Part shown: one piece after another, positions 5,463 to 33,859 of the stretch
Layout: each line of letters starts with the position of its first letter
Numbering within the stretch: position 1 is the first letter of the stretch
DNA from: Clostridia bacterium
GTDB taxonomy: Bacteria; Bacillota; Clostridia; UMGS1883; UMGS1540
DNA: 64,000 nucleotides
Assembly: GCA_045590155.1 (NCBI GenBank)
Contig: JAZNQL010000021.1
Coordinates: 5,982-69,981 of the forward strand
Reading direction: 5' to 3'
Notes under the pieces: model-generated
What the model saw: only the letters and a program-made list of their open reading frames with translations
What the model was told of the DNA's origin: nothing
Databases searched by the model: none
Program-made: the position numbers and the translations under genes

Positions 5463-5481
5463 TTTTAAAAGGTGTTATTTT

Positions 5482-6999: not shown

Positions 7000-7003
7000 T
7001 GTT

Positions 7004-7822: not shown

Positions 7823-9623
7823 ACTTAATCCCATTTTAACAATAGCAATACTTTCGTGTCTTTTGTATATTTATCAAAGCCTTGTTCAAAGCGGCTTTGG
7901 AGATACTTTTAAGACACAACTTGAGGTACCTTGGATAATTTTGCTGAATATTCTGCCCATATTTTTGATTATGAGCTTTTTGTATTTTATATTCAACAGA
8001 ATATGGGCGGCTTTTTTATGCACAGGACTGCCTCTTACCTTGTTACTCATTGTAAATGACTACAAAATATTTTTCCGTGACGAGCCCTTAAGACCCGCGG
8101 ATTTAGGTCTTGTGCGCGAAACTGCAGGAATAATGGAAAATTACAGACTGGAAATAAGATGGGGCGTTTTTATTCCCACAATTATTTTACTGGCTCTTAT
8201 TTTCATAGTTTTTAAGTTTGTGCATGAAAAAAAGGTTAACTTATTAACCCGCGTAATAGGTATGGTTTTGGTTCCTTTAATTTTTGCGGGAGCATATACT
8301 GCTTTTTACCATGACAATAAGCTTGGAGAAACAACCCCTGCTTTAGCAGAAGAATACCACGAGGTAGACCGCTCGGAAAAGCAAGGCTATATGTTTTATT
8401 TTCTGTCAAGCTTTTCAAAATCTGAATATAAAATGCCAGAAGGTTATACAGATGAAACGGTGAACGAACTTCTCAGTTCCTATAAAGACGAAGATGACGA
8501 AAAGAAAGTTAATGTAATAGCAATTATGAGCGAGGCATTCTCCGATTTATCTGGGGCCGAAAATCTTGAGTTTGAAGATGATTTTAATCCTCTTATAAAC
8601 ATACAAAAGCTCCGCAAAGAGGGCATGTGGGGAAATATAGTTGTTAACGGCTTTGGCGGTGGAACCTCTTATACTGAATTTGAATTTTTAACAGGCGCAA
8701 GTCCTTATCTTATAGATCAGGCGATGCCTGAAATGTATAAAACTTATATTACATCACGCGCATATTCTTTGGCACAGGCTTTTTCTGATATGGGCTACAC
8801 AAGCGAAGGAATGCACCCCGGCCATGCATGGTTTTATAACAGACAGAATGTTTATCTTCACATGGGGTTTGAGAAGTTTATAAGCGATAATGTGCTTGAT
8901 ACAAAAAAGCTTTCGCAAACAAATTATTATATAAATGACTCGGAAACGGGCAGAATAATAAAAGAAATGTACGAAAGTCATAAAGAAGAAAATCCGGATA
9001 CCCCTTATTTTAATTTTACTGTAACATTGCAAAATCACGGTCCGTATATGGATTACGAAACCGAGAGGGGAACAGTTTTAGAACGTCCAGAAGATATAAG
9101 TGACGAGCTTTATTATACCTTAAACAATTACTTTTTAGGCCTTTCTGATGCTGATGCAATGCTTGGAGATCTTGCTGAATATTTTAACAAAAAAGAGGAA
9201 CCTGTTGTAATTGTTTTCTTTGGAGACCATCTTCCTTATATTGATGCTGAGGGCGAAGGATTTAAAGCGATAGGATATGACATATCTGCCGATACGCTTG
9301 AAGGATTAAAAAGACATTATTCTGTTCCCTATGTAATATGGGGGAATGATTCCTTCAGAAAAACGGGAGGAAAAAGAGGCGAGCAACAAGATATATCGGC
9401 AAACTTTTTATCTGTAAAGCTTTTTGATTACATAGGAATTCAAAAGCCGAGATATTTTCAGTTTTTATCTGACGTAGAAAAAGAAATGAATGTAATTTCG
9501 TCGCACTTTTTTGAACAAGACGGGGAAGTTTTAAGAGAAATTCCCGAAGAAAGTAAGAATTTAATTACGAATTATCAATATTTGCAATACTATAATATTG
9601 TCAGATTTAAAAATTTAGGTTGA
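7809..9623 (+). CDS. LTA-synthase/sulfatase-family membrane protein (phosphoglycerol or phosphoethanolamine transferase-like)
   Basis: 604 aa. About 5 N-terminal TM helices followed by a large extracytoplasmic alkaline-phosphatase-superfamily-like domain (…NGFGGGTSYTEFEFLTG…, …GDHLPY…). Confidence 0.5.
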   Translation: MKKNKLNPILTIAILSCLLYIYQSLVQSGFGDTFKTQLEVPWIILLNILPIFLIMSFLYFIFNRIWAAFLCTGLPLTLLLIVNDYKIFFRDEPLRPADLGLVRETAGIMENYRLEIRWGVFIPTIILLALIFIVFKFVHEKKVNLLTRVIGMVLVPLIFAGAYTAFYHDNKLGETTPALAEEYHEVDRSEKQGYMFYFLSSFSKSEYKMPEGYTDETVNELLSSYKDEDDEKKVNVIAIMSEAFSDLSGAENLEFEDDFNPLINIQKLRKEGMWGNIVVNGFGGGTSYTEFEFLTGASPYLIDQAMPEMYKTYITSRAYSLAQAFSDMGYTSEGMHPGHAWFYNRQNVYLHMGFEKFISDNVLDTKKLSQTNYYINDSETGRIIKEMYESHKEENPDTPYFNFTVTLQNHGPYMDYETERGTVLERPEDISDELYYTLNNYFLGLSDADAMLGDLAEYFNKKEEPVVIVFFGDHLPYIDAEGEGFKAIGYDISADTLEGLKRHYSVPYVIWGNDSFRKTGGKRGEQQDISANFLSVKLFDYIGIQKPRYFQFLSDVEKEMNVISSHFFEQDGEVLREIPEESKNLITNYQYLQYYNIVRFKNLG

Positions 9624-18155: not shown

Positions 18156-18629
18156 GTGGAAAAACAAGTTATTATGACACTCGAAGGAAAAAAGAAGCTG
18201 GAAGAAGAACTTGATTACTTAAAATCTACCGGCAGAATGGACGTGACAGAAAAAATAAAGCAGGCACGTGCCTTTGGCGACTTGTCGGAAAACAGTGAGT
18301 ACGACGAAGCTAAAAACGAACAGGCACAAATGGAATCGCGCATAATTGCAATTGAACAAATGCTTAAATACGCAAAAGTAATTGACGAAAGTGCAATTGA
18401 TACATCAATCGTAAGTATAGGTTCCAAAGTAAAAGTTTACGACTGCGAATTTGAAGAAGAAATAGATTATTGTATCGTAGGTTCAACCGAAGCCGACCCT
18501 GTGGAAAACAAAATATCAGACGAATCACCTGTAGGAAAAGCCCTTTTAGGCGCAAAAATAGGTGACACTGTAACGGCAAAAGTTCCCACCGGAGAAATTC
18601 AGTTCAAAGTACTTGAAATCACAAAATAA
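18156..18629 (+). CDS. greA: Transcription elongation factor GreA
   Basis: 157 aa. N-terminal coiled-coil with …[13 protein letters not shown]… acidic tip motif and a C-terminal FKBP-like domain. Confidence 0.9.
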
Positions 18630-18666
18630 AAAAATCCCGAAGGGTTAAACCCTTCGGGATTTTTTA
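18628..18666. terminator. Bidirectional rho-independent terminator (greA and convergent phage-like cluster)
   Basis: 11-bp GC-rich stem ATCCCGAAGGG / CCCTTCGGGAT with loop TTAAA, flanked by an A-run and a T-run. Confidence 0.8.
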
Positions 18667-18675
18667 TATTTAAAA

Positions 18676-19755
18676 TCATTTCAAACCTGCAAGTGCCCAT
18701 GCTTTTTGGATATCCGACATTCTTTCGTAATCAATTTCGTCTTTCCATTTTTCAAAATCAAAGTCGCCTTTTTTCTGGTAGTACTCAAATTCTATTTCCT
18801 TTTGCATAATAAAGGCACGCATTTCTTCGTCTGTGCCGAAAGAAATAAGTTTCATTTTATCTTCTAAATCTTGTTTTCTCTCTCTTTCGCTTTGTGATAA
18901 GGTTCCTTCTTCTATGTCAAGAATATCTGCAGAACTCTTGTCAACCTCGCCTAAAAATTCGCTTCTTTTGTAAGCGGAGTCTATAAGATCAGATTTTTGC
19001 TTTCTGCCTTCTTCCTCGGCATTTTGAATAAACTCAATATTCTTTGTTCTTCGTGAGTTCTCTTCATTTGCAAGTTGTTGCATATTGTCTATGTAAGAAG
19101 CCAAATTTTCTTGTTCCTGTTTATACTTTTCAAAAGCCTTTTCTTCATATTCGGGAATAAGTTCCTGCGCTGCAGCTTGAGTGTATAATGCGTTTAAAGA
19201 ACTGTTTAAAACACCCTGACTGTTAAGTTTCTGCTGTGCCTTTTGCATGGCAAGCTCTTGCGCTGCGGCAAGATTTTTATCGCTTGCAGGGTCATAGGAA
19301 AAACTATTTTTCTTATACTTTTCCAGAGCTTGGTGTGCGGCATCTTCATATTTACTTTTGCCTGCCGAGTGTAGCTTGTCAATATAATTATTGTGAGCAT
19401 ATAAAGTACCGCCAAGATTTATAAAATTTCCGTCTTCAGGATTATAGTTTTTGCCGTTTATGTTAAGATAACGACTTTGACCTGTGTCTATCCATCCAAC
19501 ACTGTCGCCTTTGTTTGAAAGCTCTGTTCTGACATTTCCCATTCCTTTGCCTGCACCTACACCTGCGCTTACTAAAAGGTTATTTAAATCATCACGGCTC
19601 TTTGCATAATACGAACCGTTTTTAAGTTTAAGACCGTTGTTTCCTATGTTTCTTGTAATACCGCTCGCATCTGTTATTAAAATGCCACCGCTTTTCTCGT
19701 CATAGCCAACATCGTATCCGTAATTTTTAAAATAATCTCTTGCCTTAATTGCCAT
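18676..19755 (-). CDS. Hypothetical phage-cluster protein (coiled-coil-rich C-terminal half)
   Basis: 359 aa, last gene of the cluster. No recognisable catalytic motifs. Gln/Glu/Lys-rich coiled-coil segment at 150-330. Confidence 0.3.
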   Translation of the reverse strand: MAIKARDYFKNYGYDVGYDEKSGGILITDASGITRNIGNNGLKLKNGSYYAKSRDDLNNLLVSAGVGAGKGMGNVRTELSNKGDSVGWIDTGQSRYLNINGKNYNPEDGNFINLGGTLYAHNNYIDKLHSAGKSKYEDAAHQALEKYKKNSFSYDPASDKNLAAAQELAMQKAQQKLNSQGVLNSSLNALYTQAAAQELIPEYEEKAFEKYKQEQENLASYIDNMQQLANEENSRRTKNIEFIQNAEEEGRKQKSDLIDSAYKRSEFLGEVDKSSADILDIEEGTLSQSERERKQDLEDKMKLISFGTDEEMRAFIMQKEIEFEYYQKKGDFDFEKWKDEIDYERMSDIQKAWALAGLK

Positions 19756-19770
19756 AAAAACACTCCTTTC

Positions 19771-20115
19771 TTAAACAACTTTTAATATTATTCCATTGGA
19801 GTAATGAACTGTTTTTCCGTCTGCACTTTTAAAAGTGCCACTGCCCGAAGGCGAGGCGTAAAAAACAAATTCATTGTTACGAAAGCCTACCTCAAAATTA
19901 TTTCCGCATTTTATATTTTTGCCCGAGATACAAAAACTTCCGTCTGCACTTTTTATAGGGGTAATGTCAGTGTTTATAGAAATTATGTTGCTGCTGTCAA
20001 GCTTTTGAAGTAAAAAGTTAAGATCTTTTTGCAAACGTATAACGGCATCTTCAAGTTTTTTTAAGTTTCCGTCAAAACCGGCAGAGTCAATTTTTAATTC
20101 AGTTTTCATTACCAT
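19771..20115 (-). CDS. Hypothetical phage-cluster protein
   Basis: 114 aa ORF tightly packed (overlapping) with its neighbours. No recognisable motif. Confidence 0.3.
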   Translation of the reverse strand: MVMKTELKIDSAGFDGNLKKLEDAVIRLQKDLNFLLQKLDSSNIISINTDITPIKSADGSFCISGKNIKCGNNFEVGFRNNEFVFYASPSGSGTFKSADGKTVHYSNGIILKVV

Positions 20116-21572
20116 GACCCCTTTCTTTTTCTTATAAGCCTTTCAAGGGCGTGTATTTTACATTTTCCTTTACCGCTTATTTTGAACTGAAGCCAGTCAG
20201 CACAATAGGAAATTGAAAAAGGAATATCAATTCTGTAAACAGTTATCTTTTCTTTGTCTGAAGAACTACCCTTTTCAGAAAATACCGAGAGCGAAGCCTG
20301 ACTTTCCTGTCCAGTGTTGTTAAATACTGTAACAGAAAGGTCAGAACTTTGGGGCTTTTCTACTGTAAGATAAAGTCTTTGCGTATCGTGAGAAACAGAC
20401 GGAATATTAGAAGAAAAACATTTCGACAACCAGAACCATTCAATCTCCTCCTGAACATCAGATGCCATTTTGTATATATTTTTACCTGCAAGAGAGTACA
20501 GTTCTTCTTTAAATGTACAAAAAGCAGTTATGGGAAGACTGTCCTCGCAGTACCATTGATTAGTATCAAAGTTATATACTAAAAGAACGTGTCCGTCTTT
20601 TTGAGGAAGGCTTAAATAATACTTGTGCCCCAAAACTCCGGCACAAGCTTTTTGAGCAGAACTTATGTTGTCAAGATATTTTTGAATAGGTTTGCCTATA
20701 TTTTTTGGATTTGCACCGCCGCCGTAAATATATACAGCATTGTCACCAAGCCATATAAGGTGCGAAGCAACTTCTTTTATACTGCGGTATGCAAAGCATC
20801 CTATGCTGTCGCCGATTTTAGATGTCTGATAGCCAATAAGTGGGTCTGTGCCAAAAATCTCATACATGTGATGAGGTTTAAAAAAGATAATTCTGTCAGC
20901 AAATGAGGCAATCCCGCTGCAACCTTCGCTGTCAGACGTTTCAAACTCAAACGAAGCACCGTCAGTAAGGCTTTGCCAAAGCTCTGCATTTCTAAGTCCG
21001 CCTGCATAAAGATAGTTCTTACCGCTTCTTGCGGCATAAAGCCTGTTTGCGTGCGAAACAATATACGAACACCAGGGTATCTGCCTGTCCGAGTCAAGAT
21101 TTACCGTTACAATACTTGTTTTTTTGTTTACATCAAAATAGTATGCCTTATGCATAGCATCGCCGCAAGTTATAGTTCTATCAACAAAAAATGTCATGTC
21201 AGGCATTCCTTCATCTGAAAAGAAGTGTGTACCCGTACTTATTTTAGTCCAGCCTGTGTCGGGGTCATAGTAATACCAGTAATGATTTGAAATAACAGAC
21301 AAAAACTCATCGTAGTTTTCCGAATTTTCTTTTTTTAAAAGAACAGTTCCCAAAGCTATGGGATCAGAAGAAGGTGAAATGCTTTCGGTTTCAAAAGCAA
21401 GTTCCCTTGCTTTTCGCACAGATAGGTAAGGACCCTGTGCATCAATGTTTTTCATATCCGCAGCCTGAGAGTTGCCTATTGAAAAAGCGGCAATCTCTGT
21501 ATTAAGCCCTTCAAAATCTGTTATAACTTCTTTCTGCTTGCCCGAAAGAGTGTTCCAATATGGTTTGGTCAA
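20109..21572 (-). CDS. Hypothetical large phage-cluster protein (possible virion structural or tail-associated protein)
   Basis: 487 aa, immediately downstream of terL. Aromatic-rich (YWYYYDPDTGW), beta-rich character. No enzymatic motifs recognised. Confidence 0.35.
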   Translation of the reverse strand: MTKPYWNTLSGKQKEVITDFEGLNTEIAAFSIGNSQAADMKNIDAQGPYLSVRKARELAFETESISPSSDPIALGTVLLKKENSENYDEFLSVISNHYWYYYDPDTGWTKISTGTHFFSDEGMPDMTFFVDRTITCGDAMHKAYYFDVNKKTSIVTVNLDSDRQIPWCSYIVSHANRLYAARSGKNYLYAGGLRNAELWQSLTDGASFEFETSDSEGCSGIASFADRIIFFKPHHMYEIFGTDPLIGYQTSKIGDSIGCFAYRSIKEVASHLIWLGDNAVYIYGGGANPKNIGKPIQKYLDNISSAQKACAGVLGHKYYLSLPQKDGHVLLVYNFDTNQWYCEDSLPITAFCTFKEELYSLAGKNIYKMASDVQEEIEWFWLSKCFSSNIPSVSHDTQRLYLTVEKPQSSDLSVTVFNNTGQESQASLSVFSEKGSSSDKEKITVYRIDIPFSISYCADWLQFKISGKGKCKIHALERLIRKRKGSW

Positions 21573-21584
21573 AATAATTCCTCC

Positions 21585-22925
21585 TTAAATTCTCTTTTTA
21601 ATAGTCAGGTCGGGCTTTTTTAAATCTTCAAGTTCCGTTTTGGTATATCTGCCCGTTAAAGTAACAGGAATTTTTGTCAAAGGCGGACGTGACATGATTC
21701 CATATCTTATCGCTTCCGGAGCGTGTGTAATTTCATGAGGAAAATCAGAGACATCTTCGGGATTGTGTAAATCATGGGTAAGAGCAGGTAATGTCCGGAT
21801 TAAATTTATACAATTATTTGCAATAACAATATGAGGTCCGTCAACATCCCCTCTTAAATATTCTCGCAAAACACGCCATCCCTCAATTCTTCGGTTGTCG
21901 GCACGTACAAGACCGCAAAGCCCTGCCTCTGCCATAATTTCAATACCCGATTTGCCGGTGTCCTGGCGTCTGTTCCAAAGGTCGGGAGAAGCAGCGGTAT
22001 AAGAAATTTTTTCGTTTTCTGGAGAAAGCCGAAGGATTTCTTTTGCTGCTTCCGAAATAGTAAGTCCGCTTTTATAAAATTCACGATAAACAATACACTT
22101 GCCCGAAGGCATGACCGCCCACCAGTAGCAGGCGGTCATATCAAAACCATAGTCAAGACTTCTGAATTTTTTGTATTCCGAGGGTAAATCGCCAATATCA
22201 AGGCAGTGCACATCACGTTTAAATTCAGGGAAATACTGACCTTCAAATATATCCCAGTCCCCATAAAGCAGGGCACGCTTTTCGTTGTCGGGCAAAGACT
22301 CAAGGCGTTTTATATAGTCAGGGTCATGTTGCATTAAAAAAGAATTTTCAGTTACCTTTGCAGGTATAAAAATTCTTGTTCTGCCAATAGAATCGGTAAA
22401 AACTTCTTCCGGAGGCATAGCGTTTATAAAACGTTCTTTTACCCAGGCATGACCCGACGAACCCGGATTTGAACTTGACTTTAGTTGTTTTGGAAAATCA
22501 TTAACACCCCTTATTCTCGAAAGCATATAAGTGTACTGATATTCCGAAAAATGAGTCAGCTCGTCAAAACGGATAACGTCATACTCGGCTGACTGATACA
22601 TTGTAACATCTGAATTGCACATAAGAAAACCGAATTCAATTATCGACCCGTTTACAAATTCCATACGGTGTTTTGCCGATTTGTAGCAATACAGCGAGGA
22701 CGGGATAACTTCAAGTGCCGTCATAATAATACTTCTTTCAAGTTCGGGGAAGCTGGTTCTTAAAATAAGCTGCTTAATTTTCGGGTACTTTACCGCATAT
22801 AAAAATGCATCAATTACTTGCCCGTATGATTTTCCGCCACCAGCGGCGCCGCCGTATAAAACCTCATCACATTCCGAATCGATAAACTGTTTTTGTTTAG
22901 CAGTAATCTTAATGTCAAAATTCAT
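21585..22925 (-). CDS. Phage terminase large subunit
   Basis: 446 aa. Walker A (YGGAAGGGKSYGQ), Walker B-like (VIRFDELTHF) and a C-terminal RNase-H-like nuclease region (…RSLDYGFDMTACYWW…). Confidence 0.75.
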   Translation of the reverse strand: MNFDIKITAKQKQFIDSECDEVLYGGAAGGGKSYGQVIDAFLYAVKYPKIKQLILRTSFPELERSIIMTALEVIPSSLYCYKSAKHRMEFVNGSIIEFGFLMCNSDVTMYQSAEYDVIRFDELTHFSEYQYTYMLSRIRGVNDFPKQLKSSSNPGSSGHAWVKERFINAMPPEEVFTDSIGRTRIFIPAKVTENSFLMQHDPDYIKRLESLPDNEKRALLYGDWDIFEGQYFPEFKRDVHCLDIGDLPSEYKKFRSLDYGFDMTACYWWAVMPSGKCIVYREFYKSGLTISEAAKEILRLSPENEKISYTAASPDLWNRRQDTGKSGIEIMAEAGLCGLVRADNRRIEGWRVLREYLRGDVDGPHIVIANNCINLIRTLPALTHDLHNPEDVSDFPHEITHAPEAIRYGIMSRPPLTKIPVTLTGRYTKTELEDLKKPDLTIKKRI

Positions 22926-22930
22926 AAAAA

Positions 22931-23857
22931 TTAAGCGGCAGAATCCAAGCCTTCAGAACCTACAAGACCTCTCCAGTCAACATAACCTGTATCAAAACGG
23001 CAGTATCCGTAAAAACGGTAGTCCATTTTATTTGCAATTTTTTCGCAGTCAAAAATGGGCTTTTCACGCCATAAGAACATAAGGTTATCAATGCTTGAAT
23101 CCTGAACATACCAGGGCTTTGCCTCTGTGGAGTTTGCAAGATAATCCCATACAACAATTTCCATATTCGGAAGAGTGTTTTTATCGTTTAAGTTTGTGCC
23201 TGCCTGCTGTGTTGAGTTTAAAAGTGCACGGGCAGTAAATTCCCAGTCAGGATGAACAACCAGCTTGTTTGCAGTTGCTGCAATAAATACACCTGCATCA
23301 TCGGTCTGTGCACGGAGCTTTGATAAAGCAGTTTTAAGATTTTCGTCAGTAAGAGTTCCTGATACTAAATTATCGCCGACACCCTCGCTGTTAATAAGGG
23401 GATGAGCGCTTGAGAAAAGGGGAACAGAGTCATAACCTGCTTCAGAAAAACCGTCACAAATAACCTTTGCGGCCTGTGTTTCTTCGGTAGCGGCAAGACC
23501 TCTGCCAAGGTTTTTAGCAGAACCACCTTTACCAACACCGCGGAATACGTTGTACTGGTCATCCTGCAAAAGTTCCCAGGTAACTTCATAAGCCTTGTCG
23601 TAACGTTGCGCTGTGAAGGTAGCAGTACTTCCTGTGCTTATGTCATCCATATTAAAATCATTGCCTTCGCTGTTTGAATCCCATAAACCAAAGGCACCAA
23701 CGTGAGGGAAGGATTCTTCCTTCTTTGTCATCTTGTCAACCTTAAAGGTTTTTTCATACTGCTTGTCTTTTGCTTCGTATGAATCAAAAAACATTTTTTT
23801 GTGGATAGGGGTAAGCAACTCCCCAAAATTTGAACGTGTAAGTTTTGCTGTTGACAT
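22931..23857 (-). CDS. Putative phage major capsid protein
   Basis: 308 aa, located directly after the scaffold-like gene and before terL. Size and position fit an HK97-fold coat protein. No direct motif proof. Confidence 0.45.
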   Translation of the reverse strand: MSTAKLTRSNFGELLTPIHKKMFFDSYEAKDKQYEKTFKVDKMTKKEESFPHVGAFGLWDSNSEGNDFNMDDISTGSTATFTAQRYDKAYEVTWELLQDDQYNVFRGVGKGGSAKNLGRGLAATEETQAAKVICDGFSEAGYDSVPLFSSAHPLINSEGVGDNLVSGTLTDENLKTALSKLRAQTDDAGVFIAATANKLVVHPDWEFTARALLNSTQQAGTNLNDKNTLPNMEIVVWDYLANSTEAKPWYVQDSSIDNLMFLWREKPIFDCEKIANKMDYRFYGYCRFDTGYVDWRGLVGSEGLDSAA

Positions 23858-23868
23858 ATTTGTCCTCC

Positions 23869-24276
23869 TTATTTATTCTTATATTTCAAATATTCAGAAA
23901 CCGAAATTCCTGCAAGCTTTGCCGCCAGTTTTTCGGAATTTGTCATATCATCATTAGCAGGATGATATGCACTACCTGAGGAAAGAGCAGGTATTTTTCT
24001 TGATTTTCTGTGAAAATCGTCTTTTATTTTCTGCACTTCGTCTAAAAGCCTTTTAGCTCTTGCTTCCCCGAAAAGAGCATTATAAGCTTCTTTAGCAGTA
24101 ATTCCTTTTTCCAAAGCAAAGTCAGAAATTTCAGCCGAAACATCATCAATATCCGAGTAAAGAGCTTCTTTTTTCAAACTTTCTATTTCGCTTTTAAAAT
24201 CAGGGATATTTTCAACAGTTTCGGCAGTTTCCAAAACGTCTTGCTGTGAATTTATAAACTCTGTATTTTTGTCCAT
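23869..24276 (-). CDS. Putative phage scaffolding protein
   Basis: 135 aa, acidic, predicted helical/coiled-coil. Sits between the portal-like and capsid-like genes. Confidence 0.4.
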   Translation of the reverse strand: MDKNTEFINSQQDVLETAETVENIPDFKSEIESLKKEALYSDIDDVSAEISDFALEKGITAKEAYNALFGEARAKRLLDEVQKIKDDFHRKSRKIPALSSGSAYHPANDDMTNSEKLAAKLAGISVSEYLKYKNK

Positions 24277-24312
24277 AATTCAACATCCTTTCAAAAAACT
24301 TTTAATGAATAG

Positions 24313-24549
24313 TTATCTGTATAATTTTTTATCAGCGTATTCTTTTAAAGTTACTTCCATTTTCCCTCGATATCCGCAATGTGGACAGCAACCAATTTTA
24401 TTTTCCTGCCATCCTATGTCTCTTAAAGCAACTCTTTCGCATCTTGGACAAATGGGATTGTTTGCAGTTTCTTCGCAGGAAAGGTTTTTCACATATTCAT
24501 GTTGTTTTATTCTTTGTGCTACCGATATAGGAAGATAAATCTGTGCCAT
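24313..24549 (-). CDS. Small zinc-ribbon protein
   Basis: 78 aa with CPRC…CPHC (4-Cys zinc ribbon). Its stop overlaps the upstream portal-like gene. Confidence 0.4.
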   Translation of the reverse strand: MAQIYLPISVAQRIKQHEYVKNLSCEETANNPICPRCERVALRDIGWQENKIGCCPHCGYRGKMEVTLKEYADKKLYR

Positions 24550-26072
24550 TAAAAATCCCCCTCGGGTTGTGAGTGCATAACATTATCTTCAAGCGGTAAT
24601 CCCATATTTTCACGAAGCCAGTTTCTCATTTCAAAAACAGACATAATTCCGGATTTTGTAAGCTCGCTTAAAAGACTATAAACATAAGCTTTGTTCTGGG
24701 GCATACCTGCACCAACTGTTACATGAATATCAAATTCAGCATGTTTAGTTTCTCCGGTCGGTTGTAAAACATTTTTAAGGTCAGAACCTTTAAAGAAAAT
24801 AAATTCATTAGCGGAATCAGTAACCTTTATAGCAATTTCTTCTGTCCAGAATTCTCTTACAAGCTCAAGACAATATGAAAAAACATCAGAAAGAGTTTCC
24901 TGCAACATACATTGTTTATGCTGAATGGAGGTATTACCCGCCTGTTGCAGAGCAAGAACCTCTGTAGCAGTTGTAACACCCTGTTGTTTAGAACCCATCA
25001 TCTGGTCAGAAAATCTTGTAACCTTTTGACCTTCATACTGAAAAGCAGTTGCTCTTCTGTCCATTATGTAAGCAGGCATTGAAGGGGGAGTAAGAGTTCT
25101 TACCGAGTTTATACTGTTGGTAGGAATATTAAGACCAGCTTCATTTGTGAGGATATCAAGGTCTATACCAGAGCTTGTCTCAATAAGTCTTTGCGGATTA
25201 CCTGTAAGTCTTGCACTTCTTCTTATCTGGTCATCAAGGTCGTTTATAACATCCTGAACAGGGATTAAAAGCTCAACGTCGCCCTTGCCCCATATAGAGT
25301 GTTCTCTGTAATAAAGTGGTGTAAAAAAATAAGGATAGTTGCCATTTTCATAGAAAGGGATACCTTCATCACTGCTGTCATATAAAATCTGACCACATCC
25401 GCTCATTTCAACAAGTCTGAGTTTCCCTTTTTCCTTTGTCCATACAAGCATATGCAAATAAGCGTCTTCGCTTTTGTCCTCTAAAAGAGCACCCGCCTCA
25501 ATCTTATCGGCGATATCGCTACCGTAATGCTCTTTTGCCCAAAAAACAGATTTTCTCATGGTTTCAATAATGAACTGTGCTTCCTGCAATTTGTAAACAT
25601 CAGTTATTGCGGGATCCACAAAAATGTTTTCGGGACTGCAAACATCAATCTGCGGCAGACCATATCCCGACAAAGCATCAGGGTTAAAAGTAACTCTTAA
25701 AATACCAGTTCCATACTTTTCACGTCTTCTTTCGTGAATATCAAGTTTTCTGAAAAGTCTGTTTTTATCCTTTATAAATTCTAAAACCTTTGTTACCGTA
25801 TCGGCGAAGGGAATATCGGCAGGAGATACAGGAACAGTGGATATAGCAATATTCTGTTCCATCATCATAGCAACCTGACCTTCAACATTTGAATGAATAA
25901 TATTTGTATTAGAGCCTATATCATTTTCATCTTCTGGCTTGTTCACGTCACCTTCCCAGTACTTGTCGGCACGGCGGATAATTTCCGGAATTTTTTGCGA
26001 GTCTTTGTCCTGCATTGCACTGCGGTAATATTCTAAAAATTTATCTGAAAGCTTTTTTTGTGACTCTGTCAT
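24549..26072 (-). CDS. Putative phage portal protein
   Basis: 507 aa. Size and the portal-scaffold-capsid order support the call. No unique motif recognised by eye. Confidence 0.45.
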   Translation of the reverse strand: MTESQKKLSDKFLEYYRSAMQDKDSQKIPEIIRRADKYWEGDVNKPEDENDIGSNTNIIHSNVEGQVAMMMEQNIAISTVPVSPADIPFADTVTKVLEFIKDKNRLFRKLDIHERRREKYGTGILRVTFNPDALSGYGLPQIDVCSPENIFVDPAITDVYKLQEAQFIIETMRKSVFWAKEHYGSDIADKIEAGALLEDKSEDAYLHMLVWTKEKGKLRLVEMSGCGQILYDSSDEGIPFYENGNYPYFFTPLYYREHSIWGKGDVELLIPVQDVINDLDDQIRRSARLTGNPQRLIETSSGIDLDILTNEAGLNIPTNSINSVRTLTPPSMPAYIMDRRATAFQYEGQKVTRFSDQMMGSKQQGVTTATEVLALQQAGNTSIQHKQCMLQETLSDVFSYCLELVREFWTEEIAIKVTDSANEFIFFKGSDLKNVLQPTGETKHAEFDIHVTVGAGMPQNKAYVYSLLSELTKSGIMSVFEMRNWLRENMGLPLEDNVMHSQPEGDF

Positions 26073-26081
26073 ATTTCCTCC

Positions 26082-26708
26082 TTAACTTATAAATCTTACA
26101 ACAGGATATTTTCCACGTTTTCTGTACTTTCTCTGTAAAGCCTGATTTTTAAGAAAATTAAATTCAAGAAGATAGTTGTTTGCAAGTTCTGTATCTTCTC
26201 TTCCGGAGGCTATCATAAAAAATATTCCTGCTGAAAGAAGTTCTATTGAAGAAGATTGAACAGGAATAGCCTGTTCGTTGAATAATTTTTCGGCATCTTC
26301 ATCAGTAAGACTTTTGTCTGAATTTTTTATTTCGGCAAGACTTAAAAGCCTTTCTGCGTTTCCGTGATATATTTCTATAAGCTTTCCCGAAATTTTCGGA
26401 GGAGGGCTTACAGCAATATATCCTTCAAGAGGAATATAGTATGTACCATTTCTCTTTTTTTCTTCAACCAGAACAGGTTTGTACTGAATACCATCCACCA
26501 CAACCTCGCGAATACTGCTTTGCACTATATTGGAAGTTAAAGGATAAATTTCCACTCCGGCAACAGATTTTATAGTTGTAATTTCGTCACAAAGAGCACA
26601 ATCTGCAACCGAAGGCAGAATTCTATTTATAAATTCTGCAACCTCGTTGTCAGAAAAAGGGTGTGGCATACGAATTTTAATATCGTTTAAAAAATCTTTA
26701 AGATACAT
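26082..26708 (-). CDS. Hypothetical phage-cluster protein
   Basis: 208 aa, wedged between the endolysin and portal-like genes. No recognisable domain. Confidence 0.3.
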   Translation of the reverse strand: MYLKDFLNDIKIRMPHPFSDNEVAEFINRILPSVADCALCDEITTIKSVAGVEIYPLTSNIVQSSIREVVVDGIQYKPVLVEEKKRNGTYYIPLEGYIAVSPPPKISGKLIEIYHGNAERLLSLAEIKNSDKSLTDEDAEKLFNEQAIPVQSSSIELLSAGIFFMIASGREDTELANNYLLEFNFLKNQALQRKYRKRGKYPVVRFIS

Positions 26709-26712
26709 AGCA

Positions 26713-27414
26713 TCATCCTTCCATCAATCTATACAAAATTTCTGCAAGTTCTTCTCTTGTGCAAAAGCTTTTATATCTTTTTCCGTTTTTGTCACCAATA
26801 ATAGCCTCTTTGCCCTCAATCCATTTTCTCGCATTTTCCGACCAGCTTGAAGGGACCAAAAGAGCCTGCTCATTAAAATAATTATCAAGCATACGATTAA
26901 AATCTTCCTGTGTCATAAAACCCTCCACACTTTTTTTGAATTTCAGCCATTCTTCATTTTGCTCAACAAACGGGGCGGGGCAATTTTTGCCTGTTACATC
27001 GTAATGACGTATGATGTTTTCCAAAGGGATGCCATATTTTTTGCATATGAAGTCTGTTAAAACCACGGCATTTTCTATTGTCTTTTTTTCAAAATAAAAT
27101 TTACCGCCCGTCTTTTTAGAACAAAGCTCTATACCTATTGAGTTTGAATTCCTGCAAAAAGGGTGACGGTAGCTTTTGCTTCCGCAATGCCATGCAGTAT
27201 CGCAATCCTCAACACTTTGATAAACCTCATTTTCATCAACAAAATAATGTGCCGAGGAAGCAACTGCATTATTTTTAAAATAAGTTGCATTACCCTTTGC
27301 CGTGTCACCATTATTTGCAGTATAGTGAATTACAATATACTTAATATCTGAGTTTCTTCCTTTGGAATAATTTTTACTGTTTGAAAGCATTTTGAGAATT
27401 TGCATTTTTACCAT
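26713..27414 (-). CDS. N-acetylmuramoyl-L-alanine amidase endolysin (Amidase_2/PGRP fold, XlyA-like) with a short C-terminal wall-binding-like tail
   Basis: …IKYIVIHYTAN…AHYFVD… and …RHYDVTGKNCPAPF… are the two Zn-binding blocks of Amidase_2. The C-terminal about 50 aa (…TREELAEILYRLM…) resemble an SLH-type binding segment. Confidence 0.8.
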   Translation of the reverse strand: MVKMQILKMLSNSKNYSKGRNSDIKYIVIHYTANNGDTAKGNATYFKNNAVASSAHYFVDENEVYQSVEDCDTAWHCGSKSYRHPFCRNSNSIGIELCSKKTGGKFYFEKKTIENAVVLTDFICKKYGIPLENIIRHYDVTGKNCPAPFVEQNEEWLKFKKSVEGFMTQEDFNRMLDNYFNEQALLVPSSWSENARKWIEGKEAIIGDKNGKRYKSFCTREELAEILYRLMEG

Positions 27415-27607
27415 TTTTCTCCTTTTCGTTTATTATTTTTTTGCAAAGCATCATAATAAGCTCGCCGCCGAAAAAGCCCATAGCCGGAATATAGATTTTT
27501 TCAGGAGAAATAGAAAGAGCCTCGCAAACGCACAGACTCTTAAAAGTAATTATTACAGTAAAAATAAGACACAAAAGAACAGTTACTTTCATAAACTTGC
27601 CCTTCAT
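27374..27607 (-). CDS. Putative holin (XhlB-like, two TM helices)
   Basis: Start chosen at the internal Met whose ATG overlaps the XhlA stop (ATGA at 27604-27607). 78 aa with two hydrophobic helices and a Lys/Asn-rich C-terminus. It overlaps the endolysin start. Confidence 0.45.
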   Translation of the reverse strand: MKGKFMKVTVLLCLIFTVIITFKSLCVCEALSISPEKIYIPAMGFFGGELIMMLCKKIINEKEKNGKNANSQNAFKQ

Positions 27608-27882
27608 AGCAAAAACACCTTCAAAAAATATCCTACCACGGCACCGGCTGCCGCACTGATTGATGCACTTACAGCAGAATTCCATCTTTTTCTTGGCAGA
27701 CTTTCCATCGCCTCCACCCGTTTTGAAACGCGGCAAACCTCTTCCCGCATTTCCTTTACCTCGAAGGCAAGACTGTAAACACTTTCTGTCAGTTTTTCAA
27801 TAGAGTCAAGTCTTCTGTGAGCTGATTTTGTTGATTGCTCAACGCCTGTAAGTCTTTCCCAAAGTTCCTTTTCGTCTTCCAT
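27604..27882 (-). CDS. xhlA: XhlA-family phage lysis-associated membrane protein (hemolysin XhlA)
   Basis: 92 aa. N-terminal coiled-coil (…ERLTGVEQSTKSAHRRLDSIEKL…) and a single C-terminal TM helix (ISAAAGAVVGYFLKVFLL), the XhlA architecture. Confidence 0.6.
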   Translation of the reverse strand: MEDEKELWERLTGVEQSTKSAHRRLDSIEKLTESVYSLAFEVKEMREEVCRVSKRVEAMESLPRKRWNSAVSASISAAAGAVVGYFLKVFLL

Positions 27883-28160
27883 TATAAGTCATCACCTCCG
27901 ATTTGCTCAAAAATACTCTTTGCAAGGCTTTTACATTCTTCGCAAAAAGCATTATATTCCTCAAATTCTTCTGGATGGGTATATCGTTTTCTTAAAACAG
28001 AAAATTCTTTTGATTGACTAAACCTTTCTCTTATAAGAGCATTTACGGTTTCGTCATATCCGATACTTTCAAAATATGAATATTTGTTGGAATCTAATTC
28101 CTTTATTTCTTCTTCAGTCATTGGTCTTACTGTGCCGTTATCGTCAATATATTTAATCAT
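27882..28160 (-). CDS. Hypothetical phage-cluster protein
   Basis: 92 aa acidic ORF between the tail-fibre-like gene and xhlA. Its start overlaps the upstream stop. Confidence 0.3.
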   Translation of the reverse strand: MIKYIDDNGTVRPMTEEEIKELDSNKYSYFESIGYDETVNALIRERFSQSKEFSVLRKRYTHPEEFEEYNAFCEECKSLAKSIFEQIGGDDL

Positions 28161-29554
28161 TTTCTCACCCCAAAAATATAAATTGTAGCACCCGCCGCAA
28201 GATTTCCGTCAAGTTTAAATTTTCCAATTGGATTATCAGCAGGATATTGTAATAAGTTCTTTGGACTCGTATAAAGCCCACTTTCTTCTGTAAAAGAGAA
28301 AACAGAAGAAAGTGGTGGTGTAAAATTTAAAAAATAAAAACCTTTGTATTCATAAAAGTTATAGCATATTGATTTGAAAGAAGAATATTCCGAAATATTT
28401 TTTGAAACATTTCCGATAGGGTTGCCTTTGGTGTCGTAAAAGTATAAGGCAAGTCTGCATTGAGAGGTAATATTGCCTTTAACAAGGATATACAGCTCTT
28501 TAAAATTGTATGGCTCTCCGTTTTCGCAAATACTTCTCGTAAGCGAGGAGATACCAGTGTCAGAAAATGTATAGCAGTCATCTATTGAAACAATCTCAAG
28601 TTCTACATATATTCCTTCTGTGGGAGTTCCATATATATAAATAGCAACATCATCCAAGCTTACAGAGCTTCCGTTATAGACCCAGCCTGAATTTTCATAA
28701 AAAAGCCGGTAGATGCCGGGCTTGCCAAAATAAGCAATAGTCTGAGAAGGGTTTGTGGTATTAAAGGCACAATTAGGGCTATTTGAATAAAGCATACCTC
28801 CTGACAATAAGGACATTGATTCTCCAACACAATAGTCAAAGCCCATTCCTAAACCATCATATTCCTGTAAAGAAAGCATAACAGAATGGGTGCTGTAAAC
28901 CTTCTTATAGTAATATTTTTCCCCGCTTTGAAAAACCTCGCCCGAAGGGACTTTAGTGTAGCCAACATGAATATAATCTACAAGTTCATAATTGTTTTCT
29001 GCTATCTTGTCCTGCTTTCCATTAAGCAAAGTCTGAACGTTACCCTCTATGCCTTCAAGAGAGTTTATATCTGTGCTGGATACATTTACATCTTGCAAAA
29101 CAGTTTTTTCCCACAAGTATTTAACAGTACTTCCTGTTTTATCCTTGCCTTTATACAAATATTCAGTGCCGTCGGACGTATAATAACGGAATACATTTGG
29201 TAAATCAAGTCCAGGTGCAGTAGATTCAGTAGGCGCCGCCTTTTTTGTTGACACAAAAATGGGAGCATACTCATTATCATGATTATGGTTAGCATCTGCT
29301 TTAGAATCAAACTGTGCCTGAACAGAAGACTTTGTTCCCTTAAGAAAATTCAGTTCCCCCGTTGAAATCTTTGCGCCGTCTAAAATGTTTAACTCGCCAG
29401 CGTCGGCAGTAACATTCTCAAATTTTGAAAGGCCTAACTGCTCTGCTGTTACGCAGTGGGGATTGTCCTCTCGCTCGGTGTGCGCACTGACAGAAGGGAT
29501 AACATTAACAAAGTCCTTGATAACCTTACCCATTTCTTCTGAAACTTTAGCCAT
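28157..29554 (-). CDS. Putative phage tail fibre / receptor-binding protein
   Basis: 465 aa. The N-terminal …AGELNILDGAKISTGELNFLKGTKSSVQAQFDSK… repeat motif is typical of Firmicutes phage tail-fibre N-termini. The C-terminal part is beta-rich and Tyr/Asn/Ser-rich. Confidence 0.5.
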   Translation of the reverse strand: MAKVSEEMGKVIKDFVNVIPSVSAHTEREDNPHCVTAEQLGLSKFENVTADAGELNILDGAKISTGELNFLKGTKSSVQAQFDSKADANHNHDNEYAPIFVSTKKAAPTESTAPGLDLPNVFRYYTSDGTEYLYKGKDKTGSTVKYLWEKTVLQDVNVSSTDINSLEGIEGNVQTLLNGKQDKIAENNYELVDYIHVGYTKVPSGEVFQSGEKYYYKKVYSTHSVMLSLQEYDGLGMGFDYCVGESMSLLSGGMLYSNSPNCAFNTTNPSQTIAYFGKPGIYRLFYENSGWVYNGSSVSLDDVAIYIYGTPTEGIYVELEIVSIDDCYTFSDTGISSLTRSICENGEPYNFKELYILVKGNITSQCRLALYFYDTKGNPIGNVSKNISEYSSFKSICYNFYEYKGFYFLNFTPPLSSVFSFTEESGLYTSPKNLLQYPADNPIGKFKLDGNLAAGATIYIFGVRK

Positions 29555-29566
29555 AAAATCATCTCC

Positions 29567-29980
29567 TTAAATAACTTCAATTTTTATATTTATGTCCTCG
29601 CTGTTTAAATTTTCGCCTTTTTCCGACAAGTCGTTAATAATTTTTGAAATTTCAGAAAGCTTTATTATTTCAAGCTCGTGTATTTTGTCAATGGCACTTT
29701 TTTTTTGAGCTGCAGGGATATCCTCGTTTGCAATAATTCTTATTGCTTTTTGTAAAAGCAAATCATTTTCCTTTGCAAAATTTATCCTTCCAGCAATTAA
29801 AGAAAAGGCATTATCCCTGATAACCTGTGGGTCATAAGGGCCAATGCCTGTATCCTCTTTGAGCCAACGAGAAAGCGTAGAGCGATGAATGTCTAATTTA
29901 TTGCAAATCTCTTTTATTGGTTTGCCTTCAGCATAAAGAAGTCTTGCTCTCCTTTTTGCTTCAGTTGAATAATATTTCAT
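29567..29980 (-). CDS. HTH-domain protein, putative terminase small subunit or cluster regulator
   Basis: Start taken at MKYYSTEAK, which has a strong RBS (AAAAAAGGAGGAAGG) 7 nt upstream. The longer ORF extension to 30022 is rejected. N-terminal HTH (…IKEICNKLDIHRSTLSRWLKE…). Confidence 0.4.
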   Translation of the reverse strand: MKYYSTEAKRRARLLYAEGKPIKEICNKLDIHRSTLSRWLKEDTGIGPYDPQVIRDNAFSLIAGRINFAKENDLLLQKAIRIIANEDIPAAQKKSAIDKIHELEIIKLSEISKIINDLSEKGENLNSEDINIKIEVI

Positions 29981-30075
29981 CCTTCCTCCTTTTTTATCAC
30001 TGCAGCCCGCCCGCCTCTGCAAAAAACTATGTGATATTCTCCCCTTAATGCTTTGTGCATATCTTTACAGCTTGC

Positions 30076-30105
30076 ATTATAAGACAAGGGGTGTGTAACA
30101 TTCAA
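30076..30105 (-). promoter_or_regulatory. Putative sigma-A promoter driving the phage-like cluster (TTGAAT-18-TATAAT on the minus strand)
   Basis: The minus strand reads TTGAAT (30105-30100), an 18-nt spacer, then TATAAT (30081-30076). This is about 95 nt upstream of the first gene of the cluster. Confidence 0.4.
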
Positions 30106-30162: not shown

Positions 30163-30843
30163 ATGGGAATATTTTCAAGACTGGAACTTTTAATTGGAAA
30201 AGAAGCTGTTTTAACCTTAAAAAACAAAAGAGTAGTATTGTTTGGCGTAGGCGGTGTAGGGGGCTATGTGTTTGAAGGCCTTGTGCGCAGCGGAGTAGGA
30301 CATATCACAATAGTTGACAACGATAAGTTTTCAAAAAGCAATATTAACCGACAAATAGGAGCATTGAACTCAAGCCTTGACAGACTTAAAGTGGATGTAT
30401 TGGAAGAACGTGCCAAAGACATAAATCCTTTGATAACAATAGAAAAGATAACAGAGTTTTATCCTTCCAAAACAGAAATTGATTTTTCCTTGTTTGATTA
30501 CGTTATAGATGCTGTTGATACTGTTTCCTCAAAGCTTATAATAATAGAAAAAGCAATTCAGGCAAATGTAAAAATTATAAGTTCTATGGGCACAGGGAAT
30601 AAAACAGACCCGTCAAAGGTAAAACTTACTGATATATATAAAACTTCAACTGATCCTCTTGCAAGAGTAATGAGATATGAACTTAAAAAAAGAGGTATAA
30701 AAAAATTAAAGGTAGTATATTCTGACGAAGTTCCTGTAAAAACAGAAAACAAAGAGATTGCGAGTAATATTTTTGTGCCTGCAACAGCAGGACTTTTGAT
30801 TGCTTCAGAAGCAGTAAAAGACTTGACAAAAGCTAATAAATAA
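30163..30843 (+). CDS. tcdA: tRNA threonylcarbamoyladenosine dehydratase (ThiF/MoeB E1-like family)
   Basis: 226 aa. Rossmann motif VVLFGVGGVGGYVFEGLVRSGVGHITIVDND. Short form lacking a rhodanese domain. Confidence 0.7.
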   Translation: MGIFSRLELLIGKEAVLTLKNKRVVLFGVGGVGGYVFEGLVRSGVGHITIVDNDKFSKSNINRQIGALNSSLDRLKVDVLEERAKDINPLITIEKITEFYPSKTEIDFSLFDYVIDAVDTVSSKLIIIEKAIQANVKIISSMGTGNKTDPSKVKLTDIYKTSTDPLARVMRYELKKRGIKKLKVVYSDEVPVKTENKEIASNIFVPATAGLLIASEAVKDLTKANK

Positions 30844-32937: not shown

Positions 32938-33216
32938 TTATAAACCCATAATAAAAATATATCCTAAAAGAAGGAGAAGAACAGTATCGGTATCTTCTTC
33001 TTGCATAAGCATAAAAATAACTGCAATTAAAATTAAATCGTCTTTAGAAAATTTGCTGAATATATTTCCTAAAAAAGATTTATTTGCTTTTTCTTTGGGA
33101 GGGGGCAAGCTTGCCTGAGAATTCTTCTCAATAACAGGCTCTGCCTGTCTTTCATTGCTTTGAGTCTGGCTATTTGTGTTATTTCCTTGTTGATTTCCGT
33201 AATATCTCATGTACAA
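32938..33216 (-). CDS. Small hypothetical membrane protein
   Basis: 92 aa. Gln/Asn/Ser-rich N-terminus and a single C-terminal TM helix (…LILIAVIFMLM…LLLLLGYIFIMGL). Confidence 0.35.
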   Translation of the reverse strand: MYMRYYGNQQGNNTNSQTQSNERQAEPVIEKNSQASLPPPKEKANKSFLGNIFSKFSKDDLILIAVIFMLMQEEDTDTVLLLLLGYIFIMGL

Positions 33217-33228
33217 AAGCTACCCCTC

Positions 33229-33600
33229 CTAAAAAATATTCAAATCACCTAAAACTGATGACATTTTCGATAGCTTTAAAATTTTTACAGCACCGTCAAC
33301 TTTGTCAGCGCGTTTTTTTGAAAGGTAGGGTTTTAATGCTGTTAAAAGATTAACCCGATTATCTTCTTCGGAAGAAATCTGTCTGTACATGTTTCCTATC
33401 TTAAAAAGCATTTCAGGGTTATCAAGAATTCCTGAAAGTGGATTTTCTCCACCATCTTTTTTTTTATCTTTTACGGCATCCTCGTTTTTGGTGCCGCTTC
33501 CCTGTAAAGATGAAAGCATTGACTCAATAGTATTCATTGCTTCTTGGTTATTCAAAATGTTCTTAAGAATATCTTCCGGAAAGTCTGGCACCGAAATCAC
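33229..33600 (-). CDS. Small hypothetical protein
   Basis: 123 aa, hydrophilic, co-oriented and nearly abutting its neighbours in a 3-gene mini-operon. Confidence 0.35.
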   Translation of the reverse strand: MISVPDFPEDILKNILNNQEAMNTIESMLSSLQGSGTKNEDAVKDKKKDGGENPLSGILDNPEMLFKIGNMYRQISSEEDNRVNLLTALKPYLSKKRADKVDGAVKILKLSKMSSVLGDLNIF

Positions 33601-33601
33601 C

Positions 33602-33859
33602 TCATTTATTTTTGAAAATATCTAACAGTTTATTTACCATGTCAGGATTGTTTTTTACATATTCAGAAACACCTTTCGCGTTTTGAATATTGGATATATC
33701 GGGAGAGTCTTTCATCTGTGATATAATCTTTTGCCCTGCTTCGGTAGAACTGAAAGCCTGGAATTTTTTAATAGCCTCTTCAAGCTGTTTAGGGTCCGCT
33801 CCCTTAAGCAAATCTTCGAAATTGTTTAACAAAATCAATTCCCCCTTTAAAATAAGCAA
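33602..33859 (-). CDS. Small hypothetical protein
   Basis: 85 aa, helical and hydrophilic, first gene of the mini-operon. Start uncertain. Confidence 0.3.
   Translation of the reverse strand: MLILKGELILLNNFEDLLKGADPKQLEEAIKKFQAFSSTEAGQKIISQMKDSPDISNIQNAKGVSEYVKNNPDMVNKLLDIFKNK

Follow-up and report, generated by a model that had tools for sequence, protein, structure and literature searches.

The window analysed here is a stretch of 64,000 nucleotides (nt) of a Clostridia bacterium (assembly GCA_045590155.1, contig JAZNQL010000021.1, positions 5,982 to 69,981 of the forward strand). Between window positions 18676 and 30022 it holds, as had been reported in a preliminary description of this DNA, a phage-derived cluster of 15 intact, closely packed minus-strand open reading frames (ORFs), about 11.4 kb in all. 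The gaps between the ORFs are only 0 to 40 nt. The cluster is a complete short-tailed (podovirus-type) virion gene set together with packaging and lysis genes. It belongs to a family of compact clusters in gut Clostridia that descends from temperate podophages of about 40 kb, and it is under purifying selection and has diverged together with its host. With moderate confidence, the cluster is regarded as a particle operon of podovirus origin that the host has domesticated and that functions in the manner of a gene transfer agent (GTA).

Gene content of the cluster

The 15 genes are listed below from the upstream to the downstream end of the cluster. Selection is expressed as ω, the ratio of nonsynonymous to synonymous divergence. 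L006 denotes the element of a sister species, L028 is a further related locus, and layouts W, A and B are the gene orders of the compact family described in the next section.

29567..29980, minus strand: helix-turn-helix (HTH) protein, probable small terminase subunit (TerS), 137 aa from the ATG at 29980 (maximal ORF to 30022)
28157..29554, minus strand: tail fibre or receptor-binding protein, 465 aa, its N-terminus matching the fibre gene of related clusters
27882..28160, minus strand: small acidic protein, 92 aa; L006 has an intact, conserved copy (56% identity, ω 0.18)
27604..27882, minus strand: XhlA-like lysis-associated membrane protein, 92 aa (phrog_937 'hemolysin', 6.5e-8, the sole family match)
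27374..27607, minus strand: holin-like protein, ~77 aa from the ATG at 27607 (maximal ORF to 27736), two hydrophobic segments
26713..27414, minus strand: endolysin, N-acetylmuramoyl-L-alanine amidase, 233 aa (Pfam Amidase_2, 1e-29; endolysin PHROGs down to 4e-43)
26082..26708, minus strand: head-to-tail adaptor, 208 aa (SU10_adaptor via homologues)
24549..26072, minus strand: portal, 507 aa (Pfam SU10_portal, 2e-16, and P22_portal; phrog_156, 6e-34)
24313..24549, minus strand: Zn-ribbon protein, 78 aa, two CxxC pairs, conserved through the compact family and the phage relatives
23869..24276, minus strand: shortened scaffolding protein, 135 aa, role inferred from position
22931..23857, minus strand: major capsid protein, 308 aa (Pfam Phage_capsid_4, 3e-17, and Mu-like_gpT, 2e-16; phrog_371)
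21585..22925, minus strand: large terminase subunit (TerL), 446 aa (Pfam Terminase_3, 1.8e-10, and Terminase_6N; phrog_979, 4e-45)
20109..21572, minus strand: predicted tail nozzle or hub protein, 487 aa (Foldseek against PDB; PHROGs)
19771..20115, minus strand: small protein of the virion module, 114 aa, retained behind the nozzle gene in L028 and the layout B relatives; no family match
18676..19755, minus strand: conserved protein, 359 aa, with a small beta domain at the N-terminus and long helices after it (ω 0.076)

The family matches in the list confirm the terminase, portal and capsid genes named in the preliminary description. The Walker A (GGGKS) and Walker B-like (IRFDE) motifs of TerL can be read from its sequence, the capsid protein is 35.5% identical to the head protein of Bacillus phage PK1, and 763 homologues of the portal were found. 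The Zn-ribbon gene, with 56–91% identity across the family (tblastn), has the lowest ω in the cluster (0.012). The 135-aa protein, previously called scaffold-like, is homologous to the C-terminal part of a gene of 233–314 aa that lies between portal and capsid in the relatives; the scaffolding role is suggested by the position.

The first gene had been described as a TerS-like HTH gene. Its most likely start is the ATG at 29980, which is preceded by the ribosome-binding site AAGGAGG and gives 137 aa instead of 151; the reading frame from the upstream TTG is broken in L006. The shorter protein matches HTH_23, HTH_28 and Terminase_5 in Pfam (the last with 23 bits against a cut-off of 20.3) and the PHROG TerS families 2538, 309, 1482 and 4102, and it is probably the small terminase subunit. 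Phage PK1 also has an HTH gene upstream of its TerL gene, but the two HTH genes show no similarity, and a homology between them was rejected. The gpT-like capsid raised the possibility of a Mu-like transposable prophage, which was likewise rejected because no transposase is present and the HTH protein has just 137 aa.

The absence of tail-tube genes, which had been listed as an anomaly, is real but is to be expected, because the adaptor and nozzle of a short tail are present. For the 208-aa protein, 26 of the 32 full-length homologues match PF24175 (SU10_adaptor) and no other family, while the window copy itself misses the threshold of E = 1e-3; in the phage relatives the adaptor gene lies directly upstream of the nozzle gene. 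The 487-aa protein is identified as a tail nozzle from a predicted structure. Its AlphaFold model was built from 4 sequences, as the word-index homologue search yielded 3 relatives and no more were gained from a profile re-search, and it is of low confidence (pLDDT 54, TM 0.3–0.4). The top 26 PDB matches of the model in Foldseek are nevertheless all podovirus nozzle, hub or muzzle proteins (E 7e-12 to 9e-6), namely those of Pa223 (7e-12), P22 (gp10, 8eap_D, 1.5e-8), SU10 (2e-7), Sf6 (gp8), T7 (gp12), crAss001 and VP1 among others, and the PHROGs matched by the protein (511, 3287 and 578) are virion or head-closure proteins.

The 359-aa gene always follows the nozzle gene, both in the compact family and in the phages of about 40 kb. 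Its product has no match in Pfam, PHROG, PDB or by fold, the single-sequence model being so poor (pTM 0.24) that a fold search is meaningless. Its position, by analogy with the gene order 4, 10, 26 of phage P22, suggests a candidate tail needle, plug or internal protein. Homology and structure searches on the three proteins singled out in the preliminary description thus assign the 208-aa and 487-aa products and leave the 359-aa product without a match. Sequence searches of the PDB, with profiles for the nozzle, the 359-aa protein and the portal and with the single sequence of the fibre, found nothing.

That the 465-aa protein is tail-fibre-like, as first proposed, is borne out by its N-terminal ~100 aa, which are 33–49% identical to the fibre gene of related clusters; the same region of the relatives' gene matches tail-fibre PHROGs (phrog_892, 3e-15). 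The window protein itself has no direct Pfam or PDB match. The C-terminal two-thirds of the fibre are replaced between the window (28184–29508) and L006 (788–1881), the two elements being otherwise collinear, and this exchange fits a switch of receptor specificity. The small acidic protein encoded next to the fibre gene (27882..28160) has no family match.

In the lysis cassette, described earlier as PBSX-type, the amidase is firmly identified. The XhlA-like protein is supported by phrog_937 only and has a C-terminal hydrophobic segment, as read from its sequence. The third member is a putative holin by sequence and position, with no family match: its gene lies directly before that of the amidase, and its most likely start, at 27607, forms an ATGA overlap with the stop of the preceding gene.

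No recombinase or replication domain was found in the cluster or in the scanned surroundings, which comprise the contiguous ORFs from 13599 to 37795 and ten more ORFs between 9673 and 48266; this also covers an integrase just outside the cluster. No direct repeats bracket the cluster as attachment (att) sites beyond chance expectation, and no tRNA or tmRNA is present in the whole window. The preliminary description, which had noted the lack of recombinase, tRNA and att repeats, was correct in this respect.

Compact family and phage relatives

A scan for portal homologues, with one genome per species, gave 26 loci, all in metagenome-assembled genomes (MAGs) of Clostridia or Oscillospiraceae; goat, water buffalo and chicken are among the named sources. 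Compact clusters of about 9–13 kb are found in more than 25 gut Clostridia MAGs, and their gene maps show three layouts. Layout W consists of the window element and L006. In layout B the order is TerS (GP3), adaptor, portal, scaffold, capsid, TerL, Zn-ribbon gene, nozzle, 359-aa gene and lysis genes, and upstream of these lie genes for an HTH_3 repressor, an ImmA/M78 protease and a sigma-like late activator (phrog_36). In layout A (L001, L008, L011–L017, L029 and L032–L035) the order is portal, Zn-ribbon gene, scaffold, capsid, fibre, lysis genes, adaptor, nozzle and 359-aa gene. The Zn-ribbon gene thus shifts its place with the layout, following the portal in W and A and TerL in B. Neither TerL nor TerS was found within ±10 kb of the layout A clusters, whose virion genes are still under purifying selection (ω 0.03–0.22); either the terminase is encoded at a second locus, or the particles contain no DNA.

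More distant portal relatives (39–47% identity) are found on IMG/VR contigs of 38–46 kb. These have the canonical order of TerL, portal, Zn-ribbon gene, scaffold and capsid, followed by adaptor, nozzle and 359-aa gene. In the window, in contrast, the TerL gene lies downstream of the capsid gene. In neighbour-joining trees of both portal and capsid, all the compact clusters form one clade nested among the phages of 38–46 kb. Since the compact clusters are a single nested clade and the phages keep the canonical order, the gene order of the window is derived and family-wide. The order described at first as "scrambled" is therefore truly unusual when compared with the phage relatives; it is not a local disorder but a derived trait conserved through the whole family.

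Among cultured phages, the nearest relative is Bacillus phage PK1 (41 kb), which has homologous TerL, portal and capsid genes and is the one phage of the related group with a full annotation. It also carries a recombinase, an XRE repressor, Erf, Gam, SSB, replication genes and a sigma factor, of which those from the recombinase to the replication genes are absent from the window cluster. The temperate podophages as a group (PK1; Paenibacillus phages API480 and SV21; Page-like phages of B. megaterium; and the IMG/VR contigs of about 40 kb) share TerL (43% identity to the window in PK1), portal (22–47%) and capsid (35–55%) with the window element. Homologues of the adaptor, nozzle, Zn-ribbon and 359-aa genes are seen in the ~40-kb phages from IMG/VR and metagenomes, but are not detectable in PK1. 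From these sequence relationships, temperate podophages of about 40 kb are evidently the ancestors of the compact clusters.

Compared with the window element, these phages of 38–46 kb have longer scaffolds and portals. Scaffold lengths are 132–152 aa in layouts W and B, 233–259 aa in layout A and 270–314 aa in the phages; the portal has 507 aa in the window, mostly 520–560 aa in the family and 600–650 aa in the phages. The halving of the scaffold and the shortening of the portal may be related to a smaller head.

No integrase appears in any precomputed gene table of the related loci. In addition, no recurrent integrase family is found among the top 25 of 86 Pfam families obtained from 93 flanking ORFs of 17 loci, where singletons of lower rank are possible. 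Human-faecal scaffolds deposited as "Bacteriophage sp." (9.6–12.4 kb) were considered as complete mini-elements and rejected, being unrelated fragments without terminal repeats.

Three MAGs have two cluster copies each, namely JAZNQN (L021 and L024), JAZOQG (L022 and L023) and CAZNYY (L028 and L031). The copies in JAZNQN and in JAZOQG are from different sub-clades, and the second copy in CAZNYY, L031, is an unplaced fragment of 2 kb. The element L007, the sister of the window clade, has a tandem array of five paralogous ORFs (~4000–9460) that separates its capsid gene from TerL.

Selection and co-divergence with the host

When the window is compared with L006, in which the portal is 91% identical, ω is 0.01–0.38 in all 15 genes at dS of 0.6 to more than 1, in line with the selection previously surmised from the intact ORFs. 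Eight other pairs, including pairs of the terminase-less layout A, give ω values of 0.03–0.30.

The sister species carries its element, L006, at the same position next to greA. Collinearity of L006 with the window extends from 30141 to 15068, at 78–81% nucleotide identity, and takes in greA and three more host genes. A metagenome scan for an empty site, anchored on the neighbouring SLH/GDSL gene, gave only two distant matches, neither of which is usable. The comparison with close relatives contemplated at the outset has therefore yielded a shared locus but no usable empty site. Across the layouts, greA, SipL, MBOAT and spoIIIA recur as neighbours.

The codon usage of the cluster is indistinguishable from that of the host, for which 49 host ORFs of at least 110 aa served as the reference (correlation of relative synonymous codon usage r = 0.946; null 0.930 ± 0.037). 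The GC content is likewise similar (0.380 in the cluster and 0.377 in the host). Over 19 loci with GC contents from 0.36 to 0.55, cluster GC tracks flank GC with r = 0.89; it averages 3.4 points above the flanks. Moreover, the divergence of element and flank is equal in 10 genome pairs with shared flanks. Taken together, purifying selection, the shared locus, host-like codon usage and GC content, and equal divergence argue against both a decaying remnant and a recently mobile element.

Promoter, leader and terminator

Three non-coding features accompany the cluster.

30076..30105, minus strand: candidate sigma-A-like promoter (TTGAAT, 18-nt spacer, TATAAT; 10 of 12 consensus matches) upstream of the first gene
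29994..30025, minus strand: conserved GC-rich non-coding block of 32 nt, TTTTTGCAGAGGCGGGCGGGCTGCAGTGATAA, in the 5' leader of the first gene
18629..18665, either strand: bidirectional intrinsic terminator common to the cluster and greA, which is convergent with it, formed by a perfect 18-nt inverted repeat that has T-runs at either end

The -35 and -10 regions of the site at 30076..30105, which presumably acts as the promoter, are identical in L006. The homology to L006 in blastn stops at ~30141, which marks the upstream edge of the element. Within the leader, the block of 32 nt is 100% identical in L006, although synonymous sites in the genes have diverged to dS of 0.6–1. It is bracketed by an inverted repeat, TATCAC...GTGATA (30031–30036 and 29994–29999), while no significant RNA fold was found in the conserved leader (z = -0.9). 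The block is a candidate operator or other regulatory site and may serve for control of the operon. The window element encodes no regulator of its own, and its promoter and leader are strongly conserved; the invariance of the block suggests control by a factor encoded elsewhere.

Proposed mechanism

Under the GTA-like interpretation, a single transcript of about 11.4 kb would run from the promoter near 30090 to the terminator at 18629–18665. The capsid protein, the short scaffold and the portal would form a procapsid, which the TerS-like HTH protein and TerL would fill with DNA. The adaptor, the nozzle, the 359-aa protein and the fibre would then close the head and build the short tail, and the XhlA-like protein, the holin and the amidase would lyse the producer cell and free the particles. 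Because there are no replication, excision or integration functions, the DNA open to the terminase would be the host chromosome, fragments of which could be delivered to recipient cells. Production of the particles may be under the control of a host regulator acting through the leader.

Three properties of GTAs bear on this interpretation. The structural, packaging and lysis genes are phage-derived and reside in the host chromosome. The cluster and the scanned surroundings have no replication, excision or integration functions of their own. Inheritance appears to be vertical and under purifying selection, which has to be read with two caveats: synonymous divergence is near saturation in most pairs (pS, the proportion of synonymous differences, is 0.5–0.75), limiting the power of the co-divergence test, and the presence of two diverged copies in some MAGs fits mobile elements better than a GTA. 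Several further observations weigh on the same side. The upstream neighbour differs between the window and L006. The assignment of TerS is weak, and the HTH protein may alternatively be a transcription regulator. A sigma-A-like promoter ahead of lysis genes, with no regulator encoded in the element, needs a repressor that has not been seen. Finally, a capsid of the ancestral size could let the element package itself.

Alternative explanations

The particle may have been domesticated and selected for something other than gene transfer, such as a PBSX-like killer or defective particle, or programmed lysis with release of DNA; in the terminase-less relatives it would be a DNA-free particle. Assembly and lysis would proceed as proposed above, and the benefit to the host alone would differ. 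The XhlA-like/holin/amidase cassette resembles that of PBSX, and the HTH_3 repressor, ImmA/M78 protease and phrog_36 activator of layout B amount to a PBSX-like control logic. The layout A clusters, in which the virion genes are maintained without an adjacent terminase, point in the same direction, but their terminase may be encoded elsewhere, just as the genes of FpGTA and RcGTA are divided between loci. PBSX, moreover, kills by means of its contractile tail, which is absent from the window element, and the TerL of the window is intact with ω of 0.079, which implies that DNA packaging matters here. This explanation is considered unlikely.

It is quite improbable that the cluster is a still-mobile element, that is, a helper-dependent satellite or mini-phage that owes its excision, replication and spread to a helper phage, a host recombinase or distant genes. 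A size of about 11 kb with capsid, portal and terminase is indeed like that of capsid-forming satellites, some MAGs contain two diverged copies, the chromosomal context varies between sub-clades, and two members (L035 and L036) are listed as viral contigs in IMG/VR. These contigs, however, are fragments. The window locus has no integrase, replication initiator, primase or att repeats, no such gene recurs among the top-ranked flank families mentioned above, and the element has its own tail and lysis genes. Its shared locus, the equal divergence of element and flank across species pairs, and its host-like codon usage also speak against mobility. Of the possibilities raised in the preliminary description, the satellite is accordingly disfavoured by the lack of integrase and replication modules, by the tail and lysis genes and by the lack of any sign of mobility. 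The domesticated or GTA-like particle, in contrast, gains from selection, host-like codon usage and GC content, equal divergence, the locus shared with the sister species and the lack of a recurrent integrase. An inert prophage remnant, the structural half of a temperate podophage of about 40 kb left by a deletion and kept by chance without function, would account for the origin of all the genes from a temperate podophage lineage and for the missing integration and replication modules. It is highly improbable, and the selection data go most of the way to refuting it: none of the 15 ORFs is broken, and all are constrained at a dS where neutral genes would carry stops. The gene set is also kept in more than 25 genomes of one clade, and the non-coding leader is perfectly conserved.

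Comparison with known systems

The closest parallel to the proposed GTA-like operon is FpGTA, a podovirus-like GTA of Faecalibacterium prausnitzii (Borodovich et al., Nat Commun 2026, PMC12946183). It is encoded by an operon of 10.5 kb and a second locus of 5.5 kb, 125 kb apart, and its capsids of ~40 nm package 8.4–8.9 kb of host DNA (PMC12946183). Both systems are chromosomal podovirus-type sets in gut Clostridia, with TerS, TerL, portal, scaffold, capsid, fibres, holin and endolysin, with no replication or integration genes and with a main operon of about 10 kb. Both have a P22-gp10-like nozzle; the same PDB entry, 8eap, was recovered for the window protein with its low-confidence model.

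The two systems differ in several respects. The FpGTA capsid is annotated as N4-gp56 family (PMC12946183 Supplementary Data 2), whereas that of the window is of the Mu-gpT/Phage_capsid_4 type and has no TIGR04387-type match in NCBIfam at E ≤ 0.01, which is an indirect test of membership. Between portal and capsid, FpGTA has a Prp-like cysteine protease gene and the window has the Zn-ribbon and scaffold genes; no Prp domain occurs among the 15 window proteins. The FpGTA order is TerS, TerL and portal, whereas in the window TerL follows the capsid; FpGTA is split over two loci, whereas the window element is one operon including the lysis genes. As judged by the FpGTA annotations rather than by sequence alignment, the window element thus falls outside the FpGTA sequence family. 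FpGTA is backed by particles, proteomics and packaged DNA, whereas the window element is known from its genes alone.

PBSX of Bacillus subtilis is also a chromosomally fixed, non-replicating, phage-derived locus with an XhlA/holin/amidase cassette, and it packages host fragments of ~13 kb (13.4 kb cited). It is a myovirus-type locus of ~28 kb with sheath, tube and baseplate. The window element, in contrast, is short-tailed and 11.4 kb in size, and none of its 15 proteins matches a sheath, tube or baseplate family. The control genes of PBSX, an Xre-type repressor and a sigma-like activator, have counterparts in the layout B relatives but not in the window element, which has no Xre- or Xpf-type regulator.

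Capsid-forming phage-inducible chromosomal islands (cf-PICIs) and other capsid-encoding satellites resemble the window element in being small (10–15 kb), chromosomal and equipped with capsid, portal and terminase. As described in 2023 by Alqurainy et al., cf-PICIs reportedly carry integrase, regulatory and replication modules with att sites and borrow the tails of helper phages. The window element has none of these three modules, and has its own adaptor, nozzle, fibre and lysis genes.

From the sequence comparisons, the window element is most likely a further case of a GTA or domesticated particle, derived independently from the SU10/P22-type lineage of temperate podophages.

Implications

Very few GTAs are known. 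Only in January 2026 was a podovirus-like one first described, which was also the first from a gut commensal. If the interpretation given here is true, the compact clusters represent a second independent lineage, and short-tailed GTAs have arisen repeatedly in Bacillota; a GTA would be encoded by a single operon of 11 kb and be spread across many uncultured gut Clostridia. Such elements could be searched for by a portal and a Mu-gpT-type capsid followed by TerL, with an SU10-type adaptor and a nozzle, and with no integrase.

GTA-type packaging has also been seen in Oscillospiraceae and Christensenellaceae (PMC12946183). A strong candidate operon was found there in one of four MAGs, an F. prausnitzii, the others being Onthomonas, Gemmiger and a second F. 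prausnitzii (PMC12946183). The compact clusters are a testable candidate for such packaging in viromes that lack named genes. A broader proposal is offered tentatively, as possible rather than probable: that the clusters constitute an uncharacterised, clade-wide and vertically inherited family of podovirus-derived GTAs in gut Clostridia, domesticated independently of FpGTA from an SU10/P22-type temperate lineage and organised as self-contained operons of 9–13 kb with at least three gene orders, one of them without an adjacent terminase, and that this family is possibly behind some of the GTA-type packaging in gut viromes. The terminase-less sub-family raises a sharp question about the role of the particle.

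Neighbouring genes and other observations

The two genes flanking the cluster are as follows.

18156–18629, convergent with the cluster: greA (Pfam GreA_GreB_N and GreA_GreB)
30163–30843, on the first-gene side of the cluster: ThiF-family gene

These flanks had been named greA and tcdA. The former is supported by Pfam; for the latter the ThiF family is supported, and the specific name tcdA was not confirmed. The scanned surroundings are all housekeeping in nature, and include MurD, a MurA-type enzyme, DHHW, MBOAT, DUF4358, an SLH/GDSL protein, NlpC/P60, PFK, CoaX, SLH proteins, SpoVE/FtsW, RadC, PolA and CoaE. No Rfam family is matched anywhere in the window, and PADLOC found nothing relevant. 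Between pfk and a metallophosphoesterase gene, three small minus-strand ORFs (92, 123 and 85 aa; 32938–33859) have no Pfam or PADLOC match.

The compact clusters often adjoin sporulation genes, namely SipL (L005, L014, L017, L018 and L033), the spoIIIA genes (L008, L011, L029 and L032) and yunB (L002 and L005). This adjacency could be due to chance in spore-formers, or could hint at developmental timing.

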